A stretch of DNA of 64,000 nucleotides from Cyanidioschyzon merolae (taxonomy: Eukaryota). The notes beneath the pieces are model-generated. The model was given only the letters and a program-made list of their open reading frames with translations. It did not search any database and had not been told where the DNA came from. Positions 4,879 through 49,919 of this stretch are shown piece by piece. The position numbers and the translations under genes were made by a program. The stretch lies in assembly GCA_000091205.1 (NCBI GenBank), contig AP006489.2; one strand, 5' to 3'. Numbering within the stretch: position 1 is the stretch's first letter; every line of letters starts with the position of its first letter.

Positions 4879-5402
4879 GTCTGTATGGAAACGTTCTGTC
4901 AAACAAATCGAAAAAATAGAACGCGGATCCGTTCGTCACTGCTCGTCGCGTTGTTCAGAATGCCGATGAGCAGGCGCAATGCGACACTACGGCATGCAGC
5001 GGGGATTCTGTTTTTCCAGCGGCATTCAGAGACACTCGCAACAACAATAGCGTATGCTGGTAGACAGACTAGAAAACACAGATGTCGTTGGATGCGCAAT
5101 CAATGGATCTTTTCTTCAGACGCTCCTGCTGCGCGCTGCACAAAACAGAAATCTTGCGTTTGTCGATGCCTTCGAGAGACGGCACCTGGCATGCCAGCTG
5201 CATGCTTGGCGCTGTGCCAAGCGCGCAAAAAAACGGGACCTGCAGTCCATCAAGGTACAGAAGGGATCTTGTATTGTCAAGTGACAGGCATTTCTCGTGG
5301 AAAAACGCTCTTGCTCGAACACGTTCATCGAGACTCGTAACGATGGTGATCGATGTGTTCACACCAAGTTGGCGCTCGCGCTGGATTCCCTGTTATGGAC
5401 AG

Positions 5403-5590
5403 AGCGCAGAACACGAGGAAAACTGCATATCGACAGATTTGGTCTGTATTTTACCACCGCTTGGCAACGATCCATCAACGCGATGGTATAGTCGCGCACA
5501 ATACGAGGAAAACTGCATATCGACAGATTTGGTCTGTATTTTACCACCGCTTGGCAACGATCCATCAACGCAATCATAGAGTATGCAGCG
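5403..5590. repeat. About 94-bp tandem duplication (2 copies)
   Basis: The motif 'acgaggaaaactgcatatcgacagatttggtctgtattttaccaccgcttggcaacgatccatcaacgc' occurs twice head to tail (5416 and 5510). Confidence 0.8.
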
Positions 5591-6004
5591 TTCCTCATCT
5601 GGTTATCGGTGCTGCGTGCCGAGCTTCCGTATGACGGCGGCTGTAGCAACATTCCAAAACCGAAATCCTTCCGTGGTGCATCAGTTGCAGTGATCCCGCC
5701 CAGTGTCGAACGCGCGGATCTGATTGTCCACCAAATATCTCCAAGTACCATCCTCGCCGCCGTCATCCTCCTCGTCCACGTCCTTCTCGTCGTCGTCATC
5801 GAGAAACATTGTGGAGGTATCTACCAAACGACACAGCGGCAGAATCACTGTACACACCTCTGAGAATCCCTTCGAGCAGTCTCGCTGACAGGCAGCGTCA
5901 ACGCACCTGTCACGCGAGCTATACGTTTATGCACGCCATTTCAGCTGCCTTCATCCTGCCTGGTATGCTTCTCCGCCGATGCGGTGGCATTAGAGTCGAA
6001 GCTT

Positions 6005-7882
6005 TCAATAAATATTTCGACTGTAGAGGTAATGACGCCACTCGCGACGATCCCACAGGTTTTCGATGTAATTAAGGATCGCTGCGTCCACATCGAACCC
6101 GACGAGATCCGTGGTGTTCACACACACGATCTTCGGCTCTGTGAGACGGGTGAGGCCCTCCTCCGGTGTCATGATGTAGCGGGGCGGCGTTTTAGCCTCT
6201 TCCCCTGTGGTGTTACTCCAGCATGACACCTTCAAGTTGAAGTGCTGCTTCATAAGAAGTCGAGTTCCTTCCTGCGGGATCTTCCGCTGATTGCGGTGCA
6301 AGAACATGACAGAACGTCCCATTTTCTCGAGCCGTGCAAGGACATGTTTCCGTGCCGATCCATTCGTGGCGAGCGCGGGTGTCCTGACCAGTTCCTCCGG
6401 AAACGGCCAGAATTGCAACATGCCATGACCCTGAAACAATCCGTGATCGTCGTAGAAGCCCACTGATCCCAGAGCTATCGGTGTAATTTCGGATGGCTCA
6501 TGCAGCGCGAGCGCAGCTAGACGGTACGAGTCCTTGTCGCCGTACAAGTGCCGATAGAAAAAGTCTCGATGGTGGTACATGTACACGGCAAGCATCAAAG
6601 GGCGCCAAAAGCTTCGTTTGCGGTCGATATCACGCCGACGGAGCAGAATCTGACCCGATTCGGAACCGCGCCTGTCCTCTATACGGATGCCACAGGCCTG
6701 CTGCTCGCTTCCAGGCTCCGTGTACTCTACGGTGCCTTCGTACTGGGAGCATGGTGGCGGCCCCAGGGCTTTCAGCATCGTTCGGTACGGAACCAGACGG
6801 CGATAATCTGACGGTTCAAAGAGGCCAAAATAATCGGTCCAGAAAAATCCACCGATATCGCCAAGTCCAAATTTTCCAACGCCAAACAGACCGGTCGGGT
6901 CCAGCAATGGGATATTGTCACTGTCGAGAACAAGGATTTCATCGTACATGCTCAGCACCATCGCAAATACCTTGAGTCCGTATCCCTCAATGTGCAGCTG
7001 TTGCGGACATGACGCATACCAGTTTCGGGTCGTAGCGGAGCCGTTCGCGCGCAGCTCATAAGCCCGTTGGGCAACCTGCTGAATATTTCGGAAGACAACG
7101 GGCGCGAACGTCTTTCGGACCCATGCTTCCAGACCAGGTGTAGGCGCTTCGCCGGCATCCTGGTAGAAGATCTCAACCGGCAGCCGGCATCCAGCACGAT
7201 CTCGCAGGGCCTGCAAAGCCACGAGTCCTAGTTGCATGAGTCCGGGCCCTCCAGCTGGTATCACCACGGCCCTTGTAGCAGTATCCTTGCCGAGTCCGCG
7301 GCGCTGTGCTCGTGCTGGCTGAGGCGGCGGTGACGGTATGGCGGCCATGAATGCCCTCCAGGCATGTGCATGCCCCCGTATGCGTTGCTCATCGTCGTCG
7401 CCCTGGCCTTCTGCGTGTTTCACGTAAACCTCGTGCGCGGAACAGAGCGCATTTTCAATACCGATCCAAACCTTGGCGAGCTCTGTCAACTCCTCAGTCG
7501 TCCAGGGCTCGGGCGCAAGCTCCCAGCCCGACAGGCCGCTGGGCACAACTTTCGACGCATCCTCCGAGTCGCCCTCGGGCTGGGCACCGTGCGGTTCCAG
7601 TGGCGCCGAGCCGACTCCCGTGGGATGCTCCGGCGAATTCGCGTAGCTTTTGAAACGCTGCTGCGACCGAGACAGGGTCAAGTGAAACAAGAGCCCAAAC
7701 AGGAGCAGACCACATAGCACGCCAAGGATCCTCTTCGTGCCCGGCGCCGTGTCCTGCAACAGCGTACCCCACTTGTTCCGTATTCCACGGAACCTGGAGG
7801 CAAGTCTCGGTGCCATAGTCACCGGCAAACCGTCAAGCTCCAAGCGCTTGGAAGTGACTAGTCCATCCCCCGCCGATGACAA
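6005..7882 (-). CDS. Type II membrane glycosyltransferase (nucleotide-diphospho-sugar transferase fold; MNN2/GT71-like DxD-type motif)
   Basis: 625 aa. N-terminal TM helix (ILGVLCGLLLFGLLFHLTL) follows a short cytoplasmic tail. The core 'GYGLKVFAMVLSMYDEILVLDSDNIPLLDPTGLF' resembles the GWxxKxxAL..FxE..xLDADN block of Golgi mannosyltransferases, and a GDKD motif lies downstream. Confidence 0.5.
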   Translation of the reverse strand: MSSAGDGLVTSKRLELDGLPVTMAPRLASRFRGIRNKWGTLLQDTAPGTKRILGVLCGLLLFGLLFHLTLSRSQQRFKSYANSPEHPTGVGSAPLEPHGAQPEGDSEDASKVVPSGLSGWELAPEPWTTEELTELAKVWIGIENALCSAHEVYVKHAEGQGDDDEQRIRGHAHAWRAFMAAIPSPPPQPARAQRRGLGKDTATRAVVIPAGGPGLMQLGLVALQALRDRAGCRLPVEIFYQDAGEAPTPGLEAWVRKTFAPVVFRNIQQVAQRAYELRANGSATTRNWYASCPQQLHIEGYGLKVFAMVLSMYDEILVLDSDNIPLLDPTGLFGVGKFGLGDIGGFFWTDYFGLFEPSDYRRLVPYRTMLKALGPPPCSQYEGTVEYTEPGSEQQACGIRIEDRRGSESGQILLRRRDIDRKRSFWRPLMLAVYMYHHRDFFYRHLYGDKDSYRLAALALHEPSEITPIALGSVGFYDDHGLFQGHGMLQFWPFPEELVRTPALATNGSARKHVLARLEKMGRSVMFLHRNQRKIPQEGTRLLMKQHFNLKVSCWSNTTGEEAKTPPRYIMTPEEGLTRLTEPKIVCVNTTDLVGFDVDAAILNYIENLWDRREWRHYLYSRNIY

Positions 7883-17302: not shown

Positions 17303-19261
17303 ATGGAAAACTTGCTCTTCCAGGCAGAAGGAATCGGAACCGGGAACGACACCGATTCTGAACCCGGCGATGAGCGCAACTCAACAACCGAGCTCTGGGA
17401 GCACAGCGCTGCGGCACTGGCGCGCAACCCCTGCGGCTGTCCTGCAGAAGAAAGCCAAGCACGATGTTGCCGCGACCTAGACGCTAGGCAAAACTCCCAT
17501 AGTCATCCGGAACAACGAGCGATCGTCTGTACGCACGAGGCGGTGTTCAGCCTCGACGAACGCGGCTCAGTAGCGGCTCCGTCGCTGGATACCCGACACT
17601 TACTTGCTGAGCCACCGGCACTCGCAACCTCGCTTGGCACCCATTATCGGCAAATTGGGCTTGCCGTTCCGCCAAATGGGGAACTGCAGTGCTTCACGCC
17701 TCGAGGAGAGGCGCTTTCAGCCTACTGGCGAACGAGTCAACTCGGGGGGCCTGTCACGAGTACCTGCGTCGGCGAACTGGATCCGCTCGAGCACGTCGCT
17801 AACCAGACCGTGCTGGACGCGACATCGAGCCGGGGGCTCACTACACCCGCAGAGCACCATGAAAAGGGCATTGCAGAGCCAGTGACGACGCAACCCGTTT
17901 TCCGAATCGTTCTCACAGGTGGTCCGTGCGCCGGCAAGACCACTGCAATGGCCCTGTTGGCTGAAAGGTTCCGTTCCCGCGGTTTCCGGGTATTCCTCGT
18001 ACCAGAGGCTGCAACGCTGCTCTTTACGGGCGGTGCCGGCCAGGCGAATATCACTGGAGACTCAGAGTGTCGGATCCTGTTCCAGAGCATTCTAGCTCGC
18101 CTCCAGATCACACTGGAGGACGGTTTCTTCGCGCTGGCACAACAGTGTCGAGCGCCGTCTATCGTTCTCTGTGATCGCGGCTTCCTCGATGGTCGTGCCT
18201 ACATGTCTGGAGACGAGTATACCGAAATGCTTGGTCAAAACGCATGGAATCTGATCGAGATGCGCGATCAGCGGTACGACGCTGTCTTGCACCTGGTGAC
18301 TGCAGCGGATGGAGCGGAATCGTTTTACACCTGCGAGGGCCACGCTGCGCGTTCGGAAAGCCTCCGTGAAGCACGACAAGTGGACGCTCGAACCCGGGAA
18401 GCTTGGTCGGGTCATCCGCGCCTGTACGTTATCGAAAATCGCAATCGCTGGCTGGCAGAGCATTCATCGACGTGCTCTCTGGACGAGGCCCCAGCCGCTG
18501 CACCACCGAATGACCAAGAATTCCTACCGCTGGGGCACTGCACACCGTCTCCAGGTTTCGCGGAGAAAATGGAACGTCTCTTCTCCATCGTTTGCCGGCT
18601 TGTTGGCTTGCCAACTCCGGCCCATATGCTGGATCGCAAGTTCCTTCTCACGCCCGACGCGAACATGGTGAATCATTTGCGAGCAGATCCACATGTTCGT
18701 GGCCTGCAGACGTTTCGCGTTGAGCAGACATTCCTCATTCGCGCGCAGGCCTCTAGTAGCAATGACAAGTCGGATCCCAAGAACCAATCCCAGGCACCAG
18801 TGTTTTGGGCCAGTCAGCAAGAGCATGTGCGGCGGCGAGGTCGAGACGGTTTCCATAGCTACACGCACTGCATCCGCCGCCGCTATGCAGAATGGAGTCA
18901 CCAGCAATCGAATCCAATCTCAGAGCGCAAAGCACAGCCGTGGGTTGAACTGCGCCGCAACATCAGCCTCCAAGAGTATCATTTGTTGCTGGGGTACGCA
19001 GACCCACGTCATCGGACGCTTTTAGTATGGCGTTCCTGTTTCTTCTATCACAATGCTTACTTTGTTCTAGACCAGATAGAGAACGCAAACGTTGGGCCGG
19101 TGGCGCTTCTTCGAACGAGCGCTTCGTCAACGTCGCGCTCGGGGTCGACGGACGCGCCGACGCCTGCGGGACTCCCGCTCAGCAACTGCGTTCGCTGTGA
19201 AGTGACCGCTGATGCGAGGTACGCATTCTACGCCCTGTCTCGACGCTGTCCATGTAGTTAG
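17303..19261 (+). CDS. P-loop NTPase (AAA_28/NadR-like nucleoside kinase-type domain) fused to a C-terminal CYTH-like (triphosphate tunnel) domain
   Basis: The Walker A context 'FRIVLTGGPCAGKTTAMALLAERFRSRGFRVFLVPEAAT' and the later 'LHLVTAADGAESFY...PRLYVIEN' match the AAA_28 family. The C-terminal 'HMLDRKFLLTPDA...FRVEQTFLIRAQ...FVLDQIEN' resembles the CYTH EiERKFLv signature. An N-terminal ~190 aa region is unassigned. Confidence 0.5.
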   Translation: MENLLFQAEGIGTGNDTDSEPGDERNSTTELWEHSAAALARNPCGCPAEESQARCCRDLDARQNSHSHPEQRAIVCTHEAVFSLDERGSVAAPSLDTRHLLAEPPALATSLGTHYRQIGLAVPPNGELQCFTPRGEALSAYWRTSQLGGPVTSTCVGELDPLEHVANQTVLDATSSRGLTTPAEHHEKGIAEPVTTQPVFRIVLTGGPCAGKTTAMALLAERFRSRGFRVFLVPEAATLLFTGGAGQANITGDSECRILFQSILARLQITLEDGFFALAQQCRAPSIVLCDRGFLDGRAYMSGDEYTEMLGQNAWNLIEMRDQRYDAVLHLVTAADGAESFYTCEGHAARSESLREARQVDARTREAWSGHPRLYVIENRNRWLAEHSSTCSLDEAPAAAPPNDQEFLPLGHCTPSPGFAEKMERLFSIVCRLVGLPTPAHMLDRKFLLTPDANMVNHLRADPHVRGLQTFRVEQTFLIRAQASSSNDKSDPKNQSQAPVFWASQQEHVRRRGRDGFHSYTHCIRRRYAEWSHQQSNPISERKAQPWVELRRNISLQEYHLLLGYADPRHRTLLVWRSCFFYHNAYFVLDQIENANVGPVALLRTSASSTSRSGSTDAPTPAGLPLSNCVRCEVTADARYAFYALSRRCPCS

Positions 19262-20398: not shown

Positions 20399-21337
20399 TC
20401 ACTTTTTGCCGCTGATATCGTTAACTTTTGTTTTCCCCGAGCTCGATCCGCTTTTGGATGGCCCGACTTGCACGGATGCCGGCCGACTCGTTGCGAGAAT
20501 CGATAGGAACATGTTATAAGCAATTTGAATTGAGTTGATGTAAAGAAGGCGCTGACTCGGTGGAACGAAGCGAAAGTTAATGGCGTGCGCAACGGGCCAG
20601 ACCGACCACGAGGCGCGAACTCCCGTGAACGTATCTGCCTTGATTTTCTTCACGGTTTCCTCAGTCGATGCACCGCTCAGCAAGCTTGTGTATCCCAGGA
20701 AAATTGCGGTGAATATGGGCGCCCACAGCAGCTGGTCAAGTGCAACTTTGGAGACCACTTCCCGCACGCCGGTTCCCTTGATCATCTGATCCAGAAATTG
20801 GTACCAATAATGGCCCGTTGATCCGTGAATGAGGAATCCAAACGACATCATGCGGAAAAGGCGCTTCTTATCCAGTTTCTGCTTATCTAAAAAGTGCTGC
20901 GCTAGCACGTCGCCTAACCCGAAACCAACTAGAGACGTGAACATCTTCGTCAAAAGCGGCCGCTTAGCCAGGTTTTGGAGGTAGAGCGCCCACAGGGCAG
21001 CGAGCGGGTTCGGTCGACCCGACGCGCCGCCACCACCTCCGCCACCACCACCACCACCTCCGCCACCACCACCGCTGCCGCTGCGACTACCACCGCTACC
21101 TCCCGTTCCTCCGTACGCAGGAGCCGCAGTACCCTCAGGCGGAACAGCGAAGCAGGCGCGCATCCGACGCTGCATCGGGGCGCCCTGCGCGCTCGCGCCG
21201 AGCGGTCGCCGGTGCCCCTGCGCCGGCACCCTGCGCCCCACAGAGCAACGAAGAGGTGTCGTGTGCACAACCCCGCACGTCCTCGCGGAACGCCCAGGTA
21301 CCTGCAGCAAACCCGACACAAAACATACGTCAATCAT
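20399..21337 (-). CDS. Mpv17/PMP22-family membrane protein with an N-terminal poly-Gly (G15) tract. The N-terminal boundary is uncertain
   Basis: The C-terminal half carries the Mpv17/PMP22 signature (YWYQFLDQMIKG..., LLWAPIFTAIFLGYTSLLSG, WPVAHAINFRFVPPSQRLLYINSIQIAYNMFLSILAT). A (GGN)n tract at 21000-21080 encodes the Gly run. The first ~60 aa of the ORF may be non-coding. Confidence 0.7.
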   Translation of the reverse strand: MIDVCFVSGLLQVPGRSARTCGVVHTTPLRCSVGRRVPAQGHRRPLGASAQGAPMQRRMRACFAVPPEGTAAPAYGGTGGSGGSRSGSGGGGGGGGGGGGGGGGASGRPNPLAALWALYLQNLAKRPLLTKMFTSLVGFGLGDVLAQHFLDKQKLDKKRLFRMMSFGFLIHGSTGHYWYQFLDQMIKGTGVREVVSKVALDQLLWAPIFTAIFLGYTSLLSGASTEETVKKIKADTFTGVRASWSVWPVAHAINFRFVPPSQRLLYINSIQIAYNMFLSILATSRPASVQVGPSKSGSSSGKTKVNDISGKK

Positions 21338-37263: not shown

Positions 37264-38886
37264 GTGTTCGCGCTATCTAGTGCACAATCAGTTCCGTTTC
37301 ACGCCATGGCTCGCAGGCACCTTTTCGCTGGCAGGTTTGCGGGATTCGCACCCGTCACTGGTGCGCTCTGGTTACGTCCAGGGCAGCGGGCGAGCTCACC
37401 GGTGACAGGCGCCTCGGACTCAGTATCGCGCCTTGGACAACGGCATCCGGTTTCTAGGCGTTGGCGGCAACAGCGAACCGGGCTGTTCAACGTGCGACTG
37501 TCCACGCGTCGGCTCCGGGTCTTTATCTCCACGGGGGAGGTCTCTGGTGATATGCACGGTGCTGCGCTAGCCCGGAGCCTCAAGCAGCAAGCGATGCATC
37601 GAGGTGGCTCGAGACAGCAGCAGCAGCTGCTGCTGCTGCGCGGAGTAGGCGGCCCAGCGATGCGACAAGAAGGTGTCGAGCTCTACGCCGACACGCTTCG
37701 CATCTCCTCCATTGGCCTCTATGAGGCACTGCGCTTTGTGGTGCCTGCTTATCTCGCATACGAAAAAGCAAAAAAGGAGCTGCTCGAGGATCCTCCGGAT
37801 GTCGCCGTTCTGATCGATTACACTGGACCGAATATGGCGCTGGCCACCTGGTTTCGCCAAAACCTGCCTGGTGTGCCGGTAATCTCGTACATCGGACCTC
37901 AGCAGTGGATCTGGGAAGCGAATGGGAAGCCAGCGCACCGTCTATTGGATTATTTTCCGATTCTGGCGACATGCTGCCGTTGTCTGGTTGCGATTTTCCC
38001 GCTAGAGGCAGCGTTCTACTGCCGAAAGCTCGAGGAGCTCGGGGCGCTTCCAAATCCACCGCCGCAAATTGTCTACGTAGGACATCCGATTCTGGATCTG
38101 GTTGAGCCCGTGACGCGAGACGCCGCTCGGGCAATGCTTCCATGGACAAGCTCGGAGCACGTGTGTGTGGCGTTGATGGTCGCCTCACGCCTACAGGAAA
38201 TCGGTGCTTTGCTTCCGGCGACAACGCGCGCAGCCCTGGCTATGGAAAAGTCGCTAGAGGCGAAGGACCCCCCGAAGCGCATTCGGTTTATCATTCCAAC
38301 GGCTAGACCTGAGTTTTCGGATCAAATTCGTCGTGTCTTGTTGGATCAGGGCGTGCCGTCGTCACGTATTGCGTCATGGGATCCGAACCTGCGCGAGATG
38401 CATCCCGAGACGCTCTTTTTCCTGGTACCACGAGATTATGCTCGCCTGGTGCTTGCAGCAGCCGATCTTGCAATCTGCAAGTCGGGCACGGTAAATTTGG
38501 AGGCGGCGGTGCTCGGTGTACCTCAAATCGTGCTGTATCGTTTATCGTGGACCTCGGCCTTTGTCATCCGTCACCTATTCCAGATGCAACTACCGTACGT
38601 GTCAGCAGTGAATGTAGTCTGTCTGGATCAGGCGATTGTGCCGGAGCTGCTGCAGGAGCACGTCACACCGGAGCGAATCCACGAAGAGGCCATGGCGTTG
38701 CTAGAGAATCGCAACGGCTGTGCTGACCGGATGCGTCACTCGTACCAGAGCCAGGTGCTGCCGCGCCTGCGTCTAGCCGAGGACTGCCCTGAGCCGGTCG
38801 TCGAGCGAACTGCGGCCGGCAGAGCTGCCGCCGTTGTTTGGCGCTACCTAGACCAGGCGCAAGAAAGCCGCACACTGGTCACCTGA
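37264..38886 (+). CDS. lpxB: Lipid-A-disaccharide synthase (LpxB, GT19) with an organellar-presequence-like N-terminal extension and an internal QQQQLLLL insertion
   Basis: Colinear with bacterial LpxB: 'RVFISTGEVSGDMHGAALARSLK' vs '[22 protein letters not shown]', 'GVGGPAMRQEGVE', 'PDVAVLIDYTGPNMALA', 'AICKSGTVNLEAAVLGVPQIVLYRLSWTSAFV'. A (cag)4(ctg)4 tract lies at about 37610-37640. Confidence 0.85.
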   Translation: MFALSSAQSVPFHAMARRHLFAGRFAGFAPVTGALWLRPGQRASSPVTGASDSVSRLGQRHPVSRRWRQQRTGLFNVRLSTRRLRVFISTGEVSGDMHGAALARSLKQQAMHRGGSRQQQQLLLLRGVGGPAMRQEGVELYADTLRISSIGLYEALRFVVPAYLAYEKAKKELLEDPPDVAVLIDYTGPNMALATWFRQNLPGVPVISYIGPQQWIWEANGKPAHRLLDYFPILATCCRCLVAIFPLEAAFYCRKLEELGALPNPPPQIVYVGHPILDLVEPVTRDAARAMLPWTSSEHVCVALMVASRLQEIGALLPATTRAALAMEKSLEAKDPPKRIRFIIPTARPEFSDQIRRVLLDQGVPSSRIASWDPNLREMHPETLFFLVPRDYARLVLAAADLAICKSGTVNLEAAVLGVPQIVLYRLSWTSAFVIRHLFQMQLPYVSAVNVVCLDQAIVPELLQEHVTPERIHEEAMALLENRNGCADRMRHSYQSQVLPRLRLAEDCPEPVVERTAAGRAAAVVWRYLDQAQESRTLVT

Positions 38887-48191: not shown

Positions 48192-49919
48192 TCAACTGGA
48201 TTTGGCGAGATGGTTGACGAGCGCGAGTCCGAGCGCTCCTGGCGCCCGGCCGACGAAAACTGTCGAGGGCGGAATGGATTCGGGGACACGTCCGTCGCAG
48301 GCTTCCATTGGCTGCTGCGGGTAGACGTGCGCAAGCCTTTCTAGCAGTTCCAGGGTTGCGAGCCGCCAATACTTGGCGAGCTCGGGACCAGTCTCCCTCC
48401 ATAAAGGCGCAGTTGTGAGGCGCTGGCTGAACTCTGCCCACTCTTCCGGGTCGAGATCTTCCAGGCTGCCAATCTCTCGGCCGCTAATGAACGGTTGCTC
48501 ATCAGTATCTGTAGTACGAAGCGAACCACTTGCGATGGCAAAGTCTGGCGGACATGCGTGAAAGACCAGTACGACCGGCGCAGGGAGCGAACGCTCTTCG
48601 TGTCGAGACGACTCCAGCCGGCCACTGGTAGCCCGCACCGATGAAATCGCGACAGAGTCCTGAATAGTCTCAATAAAATTACAGAAAGTGTCTAATAGTC
48701 GATCGAAGGTAACAAAATCGTCCTGATGAAGTCGAAGCGCATCATCCAGCGGTGAGGTAACTGGTGTCGATCCCACCGCGGTGATCAGGTCCAGCCCCGA
48801 TGTGGTTAGATCGATCCTCCCGAGAAGCGTGCAGGCACATGTTCGTGTCGCAGCTCTGCTTCGCTGGTCTATCTGGATGTCGGTGCATCCTGCGGATGCA
48901 TCCTGGCGGATGCTGGTCCCTGAAATAGACGTTGGCAATTTCGACAGGTCCCCTGTCTCAAGGCGCCTAGCTGAGGAAGTAGACTCTATGGCGGCCGTCA
49001 ATGGTAGCGTTTTTGCGGGCTCGGAAGCCGCATCGAAGCAAACACCCCGAGGTATGCGGTGTGGATCGCGCTCTTCAGGCACATCAGATACGGAATGCGT
49101 CCCCGAATCGCCGTACGGACGCTCGAGTCCTAGCCAGTCATGTTCGCGGTTGATGACGCGACCAGCACGAATTAGAATTTGTACCATATCACGACTTGCT
49201 CCTGGTGGAAAAAAATCGCGGAACGGGAGATGCAGGCGCAGAACTGGTACAGGCAGGTGCGACGATGCGACCGGGCACCGTGCAGAGGTCGCAGGTGTTT
49301 CCGCTCGAGAGCTCGTCGGCGGTGGCAACGTTCCAGTCTGGGCCCAGGCTACCGCAGCTGGATATGCCCTGGCTGCTGCAGTCGCTAACTGGAAGGCACA
49401 ATCTGGGGTATCCCCTACGATATACAGGTCCACAGACAGTGAGTCCCGCAACCTGTGAGTCTCTACCGGTCGCGTACCATACCCAGACCATTTCTCTTCG
49501 ATGCGTTGCCGCAGTTCAGGCATGGGGTAGCTACTCTTTAGGCGGTACGGTGCCGTCAACCCAATTTGTATTGCAAGGTAGCCTAGAACCTTTTTTACCG
49601 TCTTTAGAGACGACTCCAACGGGGGCACCGCGAGGCCAAGCCAGTCGAGACCTCGCAGCGCTGCCGAGCAGCCATGAAGAGCGTGACGCCTTAGTCGCCT
49701 ACTAACGTGCACGGCAGCCGTACGAATGCTCTGGAACCTGCCGTCAACCACGCGTAGATCTGTCTGGTCAACGGCGGCGGAGTAGAAAGCGCTCGGTAGT
49801 GTTGGTTCAGCGAGGGCGTTTCGGCGCACCCACCAGGCGCCCGCAGCGCACCCGAGCCCCCAAACCACAAGCACGCCCTTCAGGCGCCGAAACCGTGACC
49901 CCTGCTGGTACCCATACAT
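48192..49919 (-). CDS. Hypothetical protein. There is a possible N-terminal GxGxxA dinucleotide-binding-like motif and no confident family
   Basis: 575-aa ORF with non-repetitive composition. 'VVWGLGCAAGAWW' fits GxGxxA. It may be interrupted by introns. Confidence 0.3.
   Translation of the reverse strand: MYGYQQGSRFRRLKGVLVVWGLGCAAGAWWVRRNALAEPTLPSAFYSAAVDQTDLRVVDGRFQSIRTAAVHVSRRLRRHALHGCSAALRGLDWLGLAVPPLESSLKTVKKVLGYLAIQIGLTAPYRLKSSYPMPELRQRIEEKWSGYGTRPVETHRLRDSLSVDLYIVGDTPDCAFQLATAAARAYPAAVAWAQTGTLPPPTSSRAETPATSARCPVASSHLPVPVLRLHLPFRDFFPPGASRDMVQILIRAGRVINREHDWLGLERPYGDSGTHSVSDVPEERDPHRIPRGVCFDAASEPAKTLPLTAAIESTSSARRLETGDLSKLPTSISGTSIRQDASAGCTDIQIDQRSRAATRTCACTLLGRIDLTTSGLDLITAVGSTPVTSPLDDALRLHQDDFVTFDRLLDTFCNFIETIQDSVAISSVRATSGRLESSRHEERSLPAPVVLVFHACPPDFAIASGSLRTTDTDEQPFISGREIGSLEDLDPEEWAEFSQRLTTAPLWRETGPELAKYWRLATLELLERLAHVYPQQPMEACDGRVPESIPPSTVFVGRAPGALGLALVNHLAKSS

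Follow-up and report, generated by a model that had tools for sequence, protein, structure and literature searches.

The gene described here is nuclear and single-exon, and it is the cyanidiophyte red alga's local orthologue of the TTD14 family. It is probable (roughly 60%, in our estimate) that this TTD14-family protein combines an intact P-loop domain with a tunnel domain that is a non-catalytic binder, localising or gating the P-loop domain. The acidic ligands of the tunnel are lost and its basic residues are kept, and therefore the most likely task of the tunnel is to bind a phosphate-rich ligand without catalysis and to position or regulate the P-loop domain, as in Arabidopsis TTM1. The features of the gene are collected in Table 1, with positions counted in the window (the whole stretch of DNA that was analysed, 64,000 nucleotides).

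Gene structure and domain order

From its N-terminus, the protein has a lineage-specific extension, the AAA_28 P-loop domain, a linker helix in which some residues are invariant, and a tunnel of the CYTH fold. M1 is taken as the start, since the sole further in-frame methionine before or around the P-loop region, M216, is located after Walker A. The proposal of the earlier note that both domains belong to one gene holds, as the open reading frame is single and uninterrupted and the same order is found in complete red-algal transcripts of homologues. An identical protein is present on metagenome contigs, its 90%-identity cluster contains 28 more sequences, and the closest named relative among the matches listed is from Cyanidiococcus yangmingshanensis (69% identity).

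The conserved island inside the N-terminal extension is matched by a weaker SLxxHF motif in other red algae, as seen in the family alignment. The inserted interdomain loop (aa 383-417) occurs with divergent sequence in P0002, P0135 and P0004 and is missing elsewhere in the alignments. A cryptic intron at this insertion was considered and rejected; the sole GT...AG pair is out of frame and its removal would delete a conserved motif. Judged from its sequence, the insertion is coding and not an intron. In the linker helix, F419, K422 and R425 (alignment columns F225, K228 and R231) are invariant from bacteria to eukaryotes. Nine full-length natural variants show only 4 variable sites among the 422 of the two domains, but 7 among the 230 of the extension plus insertion. 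The predicted two-domain model has a pLDDT of 84 and a pTM of 0.84, and therefore a defined orientation between the domains is predicted. The scan for sigma-70 promoters and terminators, which is uninformative for a eukaryotic gene, gave counts near the shuffled expectation, and PADLOC (anti-phage defence) gave zero matches for the algal protein and for two bacterial homologues.

Residues of the P-loop and tunnel domains

The AAA_28-type P-loop domain that had been claimed from the sequence is confirmed by the Pfam match and the Walker A motif of Table 1, and the same Pfam model is matched by 30 of 30 aligned family members. Every P-loop residue that is invariant in the family is kept, namely Walker A GGPCAGKT, E235 and D291-R292-G293. 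P208 in Walker A is the counterpart of Pro75, which is mutated in fly ttd14(P75L), and VLCDRG corresponds to hhhhDxG, as in TTD14, or to the DR motif of nucleoside and nucleotide kinases. The suggested link to NadR ribosylnicotinamide kinase extends to the shared Pfam family only: the NadR-specific models of NCBIfam are unmatched (E<=1), Pfam finds AAA_28 only, and no NadR chain is found in PDB sequence searches at E<=1. The JGI automatic label of thymidylate kinase is also rejected, with 11.6 bits for Pfam Thymidylate_kin (cut-off 27) and 12.8 for the NCBIfam dTMP kinase model TIGR00041 (cut-off 83.25).

The presence of a CYTH-like C-terminal domain in the same polypeptide, also claimed earlier, is supported by bacterial full-length homologues (BLASTP, E = 9e-21), which themselves pass Pfam CYTH, and by the predicted fold. 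The HMM search proposed in the earlier note, which finds AAA_28, gives no match between Pfam CYTH (PF01928) and the algal protein itself at E<=1; five other eukaryotic members also fail. A profile made from red-algal sequences only reaches E = 39 against NeuTTM (the inorganic triphosphatase NE1496 of Nitrosomonas europaea; PDB entries 2FBL and 3TYP), and together with the Pfam result this means that the CYTH assignment needs the bacterial intermediates or fold evidence. An eight-stranded beta-tunnel fold is predicted; the AlphaFold models were built on alignments that include bacterial CYTH-positive members, so that the fold does not count as evidence apart from these.

The CYTH enzymes are marked by two metal-binding motifs, ExExK and ExE. 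ExExK, near the N-terminus, serves in metal coordination and in substrate binding; ExE is on a late tunnel strand and provides ligands of metal 1 and metal 2, its first glutamate being the central metal 1 ligand (PMC8233210). The acidic/basic constellation expected for the tunnel is present in its basic part (K446, R510, R512 and R525, which are phosphate-binding residues), but when aligned to NeuTTM the acidic metal ligands are gone (E4 to M442, E6 to D444, E99 to V588, E114 to R604 and E116 to S606, in the order NeuTTM to alga). The equivalent of Tyr28 is a phenylalanine, and the equivalents of K85 and R87 are in an ambiguous register, being L and W, or V and R with a shift of one residue. 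Acidic tunnel residues that survive are D444, E549, D590 and E633, and these could form a non-canonical metal site. The side chains of the mapped residues are presumed to face the tunnel from the alignment to NeuTTM. The net charge of the tunnel-domain core is +10 in the algal protein versus -5 to +3 in 11 bacterial or metagenome-type members of the same alignment.

Table 1. Features of the TTD14-family gene and its protein, with positions in the window
Feature	Position	Strand	Residues and remarks
TTD14-family protein gene, complete single-exon ORF	17303..19261	+	652 aa and stop codon; ORF list
N-terminal extension, lineage-specific	17303..17887	+	aa 1-195; alignments; mostly divergent, low complexity; bacterial members without it
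Conserved 39-aa island inside the extension, ALATSLGTHYRQIGLAVPPNGELQCFTPRGEALSAYWRT	17618..17734	+	aa 106-144; common to Cyanidiococcus P0002 and P0135
AAA_28 (NadR/Ttd14-type) P-loop domain, kinase fold	17903..18448	+	aa 201-382; Pfam PF13521, E=7.9e-24
Walker A GGPCAGKT	17918..17941	+	aa 206-213; columns invariant in family alignment
VPEAAT motif, invariant	17999..18016	+	aa 233-238; E235 after strand 2; aligns with thymidylate kinase REP motif (3uwk)
Walker B-like VLCDRG	18164..18181	+	aa 288-293; C, D, R and G invariant in family alignment
Loop insertion between P-loop and tunnel domains	18449..18553	+	aa 383-417; cyanidiophytes only; pLDDT <50
Linker helix between domains	18557..18607	+	aa 419-435; helix 223-239 of predicted model
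Beta-tunnel domain, CYTH/TTM fold, catalytically degenerate	18626..19258	+	aa 442-652; bacterial homologues and predicted fold
Degenerate ExExK, M442-L-D444-R-K446	18626..18640	+	hmmalign onto NeuTTM numbering: E4 to M, E6 to D, K8 kept
Low-confidence loop in tunnel domain	18740..18820	+	aa 480-506; pLDDT 52-62; bacterial members gapped
HVRRRG, retained basic RxR pair	18824..18841	+	R510, R512 = NeuTTM R39, R41
R525, stand-in for NeuTTM K52	18875-18877	+	hmmalign mapping
Second tunnel-domain loop	18884-18940	+	aa 528-546; pLDDT 52-62; bacterial members gapped
Degenerate ExE, ALL-R604-T-S606-A, late tunnel strand	19103..19123	+	NeuTTM E114 to R, E116 to S
Third tunnel-domain loop	19124-19171	+	aa 608-623; pLDDT 52-62; bacterial members gapped

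Distribution in the family and the probable role of the tunnel

The combination of AAA_28 and CYTH, in the earlier note a different kinase partner for the tunnel module, is not a new one. It is that of the TTD14 family (PMC4624897), for which more than 3600 homologues are found, from the genomes of at least 560 bacterial species and from many eukaryotic lineages (among them red algae, ciliates, oomycetes, heteroloboseans and haptophytes). Many homologues already have the label 'CYTH domain-containing protein/predicted ATPase' or, in UniRef entries, 'NadR/Ttd14 AAA domain-containing protein'. The full-length matches have 85-100% query coverage, about 35-69% identity and E-values from 1e-57 to 1e-203; the Porphyridium protein P0018 is named 'TRPL translocation defect protein 14' (E = 1.5e-69, 98% coverage), and no animal member is among the best 120 matches listed in the homologue searches. 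The architecture is thus known, widespread and already annotated, and the algal protein is an ordinary family member.

An intact ExExK is found in none of the 27 named eukaryotic members scored. The glutamate equivalent to E114 is missing in 24 of these 27, and both ExE glutamates are kept by the haptophyte Prymnesium only. Among the members scored, red algae and several others, from ciliates and further eukaryotes, have an arginine where the central metal-1 glutamate would be (R604 here). Of 80 bacterial species genomes, 51 have every canonical tunnel residue, and in another 12 the one departure is a lysine for E116. In the neighbour-joining tree, one split separates 100 degenerate proteins, with no canonical protein on that side. 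In these sequences, losing the acidic ligands is the rule on the eukaryotic side of the TTD14 family, and the bacterial members keep the full enzyme signature. No conserved partner is found in the bacterial gene neighbourhoods of two metagenome loci and 80 genome loci, where the commonest neighbour family occurs at 9 of 80 loci. It is possible, as a tentative reading, that the eukaryotic tunnel was a two-metal hydrolase and in a single early event became a pseudoenzyme without metal, which senses a phosphate-rich ligand and gates the P-loop kinase or NTPase, as an independent parallel of plant TTM1/2, with the bacterial ancestors remaining true bifunctional enzymes. Candidate ligands would then include polyphosphate, an inositol phosphate and the head group of a phosphoinositide or of phosphatidic acid.

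The protein could instead be an active bifunctional enzyme, its AAA_28 kinase and a functional CYTH phosphohydrolase sharing one nucleotide or polyphosphate pool (for example by making and hydrolysing a triphosphorylated metabolite). For the bacterial members, with their intact ExExK, RxR, K and ExE and their Pfam CYTH match, this is plausible; for the algal protein it is unlikely. Here three of the four canonical metal-ligand glutamates are non-acidic (M442, R604 and S606) and the fourth is shortened to aspartate, the superfamily-wide central metal 1 glutamate is an arginine, the Tyr28 equivalent is the phenylalanine, and the same losses are seen throughout the eukaryotic clade. In favour of activity are the four surviving acidic tunnel residues and also AtTTM2, for which pyrophosphatase activity in vitro is reported despite its missing the same motifs (PMC8233210), so that degenerate motifs are no proof of inactivity. 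Given MLDRK and R604-T-S606 in place of ExExK and ExE, the tunnel is unlikely to be the 'same phosphohydrolase module' as had been supposed, and the idea of a coupled nucleotide/polyphosphate metabolism is unsupported because the CYTH metal-binding hallmarks are lost; regulation or ligand sensing is more likely.

The protein could also be a metabolic nucleoside or nucleotide kinase (a thymidylate kinase or a NadR-type ribosylnicotinamide kinase) with the C-terminal domain as a mere structural appendage, in line with the automatic JGI cluster name, with the invariant PE and DR motifs, which resemble those of such kinases, and with the Foldseek results, where the P-loop domain is closest in structure to deoxyadenosine kinase, deoxycytidine kinase and thymidylate kinases. 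This is quite improbable, as the Thymidylate_kin and dTMP kinase scores are below their cut-offs and the NadR models are unmatched. Moreover, the linker helix and the tunnel domain are conserved in bacteria and eukaryotes alike, with some residues invariant, and they show little natural variation; the C-terminal domain is therefore under selection and no passive appendage. The poor conservation of two long segments (aa 1-195 and aa 383-417) might point to a gene-model artefact, that is to two separate genes or products, a pseudogene or a chance reading frame, but this is hardly credible with an uninterrupted frame, an insertion without in-frame splice boundaries, a confident two-domain model and the same domain order in thousands of homologues, including complete MMETSP/EukProt red-algal transcripts (P0006, P0008 and P0009) and bacterial single genes of about 366 aa.

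In the preferred reading, that of a TTD14-family protein with a non-catalytic tunnel, the P-loop domain would bind, and probably turn over, a nucleoside triphosphate (GTP or ATP). The algal tunnel would have given up triphosphate hydrolysis. Its pocket, free of metal, may instead take up a phosphate-rich ligand (for example polyphosphate, a nucleotide, or the head group of a phosphoinositide or of phosphatidic acid), and by way of the rigid linker and a fixed domain interface the tunnel would localise or gate the P-loop domain.

The discovery value is small and the uses are modest. What is added, on the sequences compared, is that the bacterial members keep ExExK and ExE and that the eukaryotic members scored are without an intact ExExK; this provides a testable contrast between an intact tunnel enzyme signature in the former and none in the latter. 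The automatic label 'thymidylate kinase' on the algal protein cluster is corrected, and a family known from one fly photoreceptor trafficking mutant is shown to be ancient. Genetically tractable cyanidiophytes, such as Cyanidioschyzon merolae, would provide a simple system for the conserved cellular role of TTD14-type proteins and for the ligand of the degenerate tunnel.

Comparison with known systems

To our knowledge, the sole studied member of the family is the fly protein TTD14, from a photoreceptor trafficking mutant. Drosophila TTD14 (CG30118, TRPL translocation defect 14) was described in 2015 as a P-loop plus CYTH-like protein, with Walker A at 73-80 and Walker B at 152-158, and it binds GTP, which is abolished by P75L (Cerny et al. 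2015, PMC4624897). Lipid binding by TTD14 was seen on PIP strips only and was not mapped to the CYTH-like domain. As in the algal protein, an N-terminal P-loop domain is followed by a CYTH-like domain about 200 residues on, Walker A is GxPxxGKT with the conserved proline (P75 in the fly, P208 in the alga), a Walker B hhhhDxG lies about 80 residues downstream (IVLCDRG, aa 287-293, in the alga), and the P-loop domains have the Pfam family 'NadR/Ttd14 AAA' in common. The algal protein differs by its 195-aa N-terminal extension and four cyanidiophyte-specific loops, and its host is unicellular with no known TRPL or photoreceptor context. The evidence that Drosophila TTD14 itself is a homologue consists of database names, the common architecture and the motif positions published for the fly protein.

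The bacterial AAA_28-CYTH proteins (about 366 aa; for example P0019 or the Hallella mizrahii gene) match the algal protein in their architecture over the full length (identity about 35%, coverage about 98%), and the linker-helix residues and P-loop motifs are invariant between them and the alga. Unlike the algal protein, they have the full CYTH signature (E-E-K, Y, R-R, K, E-D, E-E) and a Pfam CYTH match, and neither the extension nor the loops. NeuTTM works as a stand-alone enzyme and carries ExExK, Tyr28 and ExE, whereas the algal protein has M/D/K, Phe and R/S at these sites. The ribosylnicotinamide-kinase domain of NadR has Pfam AAA_28 in common with the algal protein but is associated with NMN adenylyltransferase and HTH domains, both of which the algal protein lacks.

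The Arabidopsis thaliana proteins TTM1 and TTM2 (PDB entry: 7z67; Pesquera et al. 2022, PMC9582702) are likewise built from a P-loop kinase at the N-terminus, a helical linker and, at the C-terminus, a tunnel in which basic residues are kept and the metal-binding glutamates are lost. Their kinase is of the UCK/PRK type and is accompanied by a C-terminal coiled coil and a tail anchor, whereas the algal protein has no PRK match in Pfam and ends in ...YALSRRCPCS, with no hydrophobic tail; the superposition on 7z67 (Foldseek) has a TM of 0.22-0.25. In AtTTM1, the catalytically incompetent tunnel keeps its basic residues, binds citrate, packs onto the inactive kinase and regulates it (PMC9582702). 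By analogy, this inactive tunnel clamping its kinase fits as a precedent for the mechanism suggested for the algal protein.

The gene, its setting and the N-terminal extension

The target gene consists of a single ATG-to-stop ORF of uninterrupted frame, lying on a contig of 48-60% GC whose layout is eukaryotic, with wide spacing between genes. Its neighbours in the window encode an aldehyde dehydrogenase, a PP2C, an Mpv17/PMP22-family protein, a ferroportin, a proline dehydrogenase, an Rtf1-type Plus-3 protein and a Kelch-Hint protein; finding Kelch repeats joined to a Hint domain is unusual for a red alga. M216, which lies 3' of the Walker A motif, is the sole methionine between M1 and the P-loop region, so the N-terminal extension belongs to the product. 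This extension is divergent except for a 39-aa island, and a weaker SLxxHF motif is found at the equivalent position in other red algae. A gene-model artefact behind this ORF is excluded for practical purposes: the 35-aa inter-domain insertion has no in-frame splice boundaries, and complete transcripts of red algae (MMETSP and EukProt entries) as well as single bacterial genes of ~366 aa show the same order of the two domains.

Features in the window (window positions)
Feature	Position	Strand	Remarks
Target gene	17303..19261	+	one ATG-to-stop ORF, 652 aa
39-aa island ALATSLGTHYRQIGLAVPPNGELQCFTPRGEALSAYWRT	17618-17734	+	within the N-terminal extension; conserved in three cyanidiophyte species
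Mpv17/PMP22-family gene	20399-21337	-	convergent with the target gene; run of 14 glycines in the N-terminal half of the protein
LpxB (lipid-A-disaccharide synthase) homologue	37264-38886	+	Pfam E=2.4e-62; on a eukaryotic nuclear contig
575-aa ORF	48192-49919	-	no Pfam match at E<=1e-5
Kelch-Hint ORF, 728 aa	58490-60676	+	Kelch beta-propeller repeats aa ~56-350; C-terminal Hint (hedgehog/intein-type) module aa 484-708, Pfam E=2.1e-30

Identity and spread of the two domains

The three strings quoted in the earlier note are all present in the product (aa 202-214, 443-449 and 471-479), and the HMM search that it proposed bears out the P-loop domain, with Pfam AAA_28 matching aa 201-382 (E=7.9e-24, 85 bits). 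No other P-loop family reaches the cut-off in the Pfam and NCBIfam searches, which include the thymidylate-kinase and NadR models. The closest structural matches of this intact domain are deoxynucleoside and thymidylate kinases, and its invariant PE and DR motifs are of the type used by these enzymes. The JGI/IMG automatic name of the target's cluster, 'thymidylate kinase', is unsupported (Pfam Thymidylate_kin, 11.6 bits versus a cut-off of 27).

For the C-terminal domain the same search is negative, as Pfam CYTH finds nothing at E<=1 on the target itself, and a profile of red-algal sequences only matches the solved CYTH enzyme NeuTTM (NE1496 of Nitrosomonas europaea) with E=39. Despite this, sequence comparison through the family confirms the domain as a CYTH homologue. 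It aligns over its whole length with the C-terminal region of full-length homologues from bacteria, among them P0019 (BLASTP E=9e-21), of which aa 207-343 exceed the Pfam CYTH gathering score (30.3 versus 23.2 bits); CYTH is matched in 17 of 30 aligned family members, and family profiles match NeuTTM (PDB entries 2FBL/3TYP) end to end (E=3.2e-8 and 5.1e-9). The earlier note had recognized the fold correctly from two short strings.

The combination is not new, contrary to what had been supposed. The search returned 3624 homologues, most of which span 85-100% of the query and have both domains, with source names such as 'CYTH domain-containing protein/predicted ATPase' and 'NadR/Ttd14 AAA domain-containing protein', and a P-loop domain together with a CYTH-like one had been reported for Drosophila TTD14 in 2015 (PMC4624897). 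A protein identical to the target is encoded on metagenome contigs, and its cluster at >=90% identity comprises 29 sequences. Among named organisms, Cyanidiococcus yangmingshanensis has the most similar protein (69%), followed by Cyanidium caldarium (51%) and other red algae (~40%), which places the source of the target among the cyanidiophyte red algae; the Porphyridium homologue is named 'TRPL translocation defect protein 14'. A second search adds ciliates, oomycetes, Naegleria, Acrasis and haptophytes, and animal members are absent among the matches listed in the homologue searches. The gene is present in at least 560 bacterial species genomes, including Bacteroidota, Bacillota, Myxococcota-type and Saccharibacteria MAGs and the isolate Hallella mizrahii. 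Given these thousands of annotated homologues and this wide spread, the architecture is old, common and already annotated. The target very probably belongs to the TTD14 family: its GGPCAGKT and IVLCDRG motifs have the same spacing as the published positions of the TTD14 Walker A (aa 73-80, including the proline altered by ttd14 P75L) and Walker B hhhhDxG (aa 152-158) motifs (PMC4624897).

Larger architectures also occur among the matches, namely protein-kinase domains (PF00069/PF07714) with AAA_28 in P0029 (631 aa; JGI name 'CYTH domain-containing protein/predicted ATPase') and PF08010 with AAA_28 in P0073 (514 aa). The 80 best bacterial genome loci are mostly from rumen and gut MAGs (Prevotella, Bacteroidales, Clostridia, Erysipelotrichaceae), habitats in which ciliates with the eukaryotic form of the family also abound. 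No conserved partner gene is found in the bacterial neighbourhoods (metagenome loci and the 80 genome loci), and PADLOC finds no defence-system match for the target and two bacterial homologues. In a single bacterial contig, the AAA_28-CYTH gene (6001-7101) is preceded on the same strand, at a distance of 18 nt, by a separate gene for a CYTH-domain protein of 328 aa (4997-5983); none of the 80 genome loci repeats this pairing.

A basic tunnel without the canonical metal site

The metal-binding hallmarks of CYTH enzymes are the ExExK and ExE motifs, the first glutamate of ExE being the central metal-1 ligand superfamily-wide (PMC8233210). When all available family members are mapped to NeuTTM numbering, the bacterial enzyme signature (E4, E6, K8, Y28, R39, R41, K52, E99, D101, E114, E116) is exact in 51 of the 80 bacterial species genomes and differs only at E116 in 12 more. 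The corresponding target residues are M442, D444, K446, F477, R510, R512, R525, V588, D590, R604 and S606. By this alignment the basic, phosphate-binding side is retained. Of the four glutamates that are canonical metal ligands, E4, E114 and E116 have non-acidic replacements, as does the additional glutamate E99, and E6 is the sole canonical ligand position still acidic, as an aspartate. The conserved tunnel core has a net charge of +10, compared with -5 to +3 in 11 bacterial or metagenome-type members of the same alignment. The interior of the target tunnel is basic, and the canonical metal site is missing from the domain.

An intact ExExK is absent in all 27 named eukaryotic members and the E114 equivalent in 24 of them, with arginine at this position in red algae and several ciliates. 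A neighbour-joining tree covering 190 members contains a split with 100 degenerate and no canonical proteins on one side, consistent with the signature having been lost once, early, in a eukaryotic clade. The added insight is modest: a pseudoenzyme tunnel across the eukaryotes scored and an intact tunnel in bacteria.

Function of the tunnel and precedents

The earlier note suggested that the fusion is an active kinase-phosphohydrolase pair, a reasonable proposal for the bacterial members; pyrophosphatase activity has also been reported for AtTTM2 despite missing motifs (PMC8233210). For the target, the residue losses make this reading unlikely, and 'phosphohydrolase' is probably wrong for a tunnel in which E4, E114 and E116 are all replaced by non-acidic residues. 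An ordinary metabolic kinase with a passive C-terminal appendage is at odds with how strongly tunnel and linker are conserved, as F419, K422 and R425 of the linker helix are invariant from bacteria through eukaryotes. The high pTM of the two-domain model argues for a fixed predicted interface.

We tentatively favour, with a probability of about 0.45 for the mechanism as a whole, that the P-loop domain binds, and probably turns over, GTP or ATP, and that the tunnel would hold a phosphate-rich ligand without hydrolysing it, thereby localizing or gating the P-loop domain. This proposal by analogy draws on two precedents, one of them Arabidopsis TTM1, whose tunnel has glutamines in place of glutamates, still binds an anionic ligand via basic residues, and packs onto its kinase, inactivating it (PMC9582702). 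In Drosophila TTD14, the CYTH-like domain (aa 279-437) begins within a stretch (aa 254-320) that its authors describe as weakly PX-like (PMC4624897).
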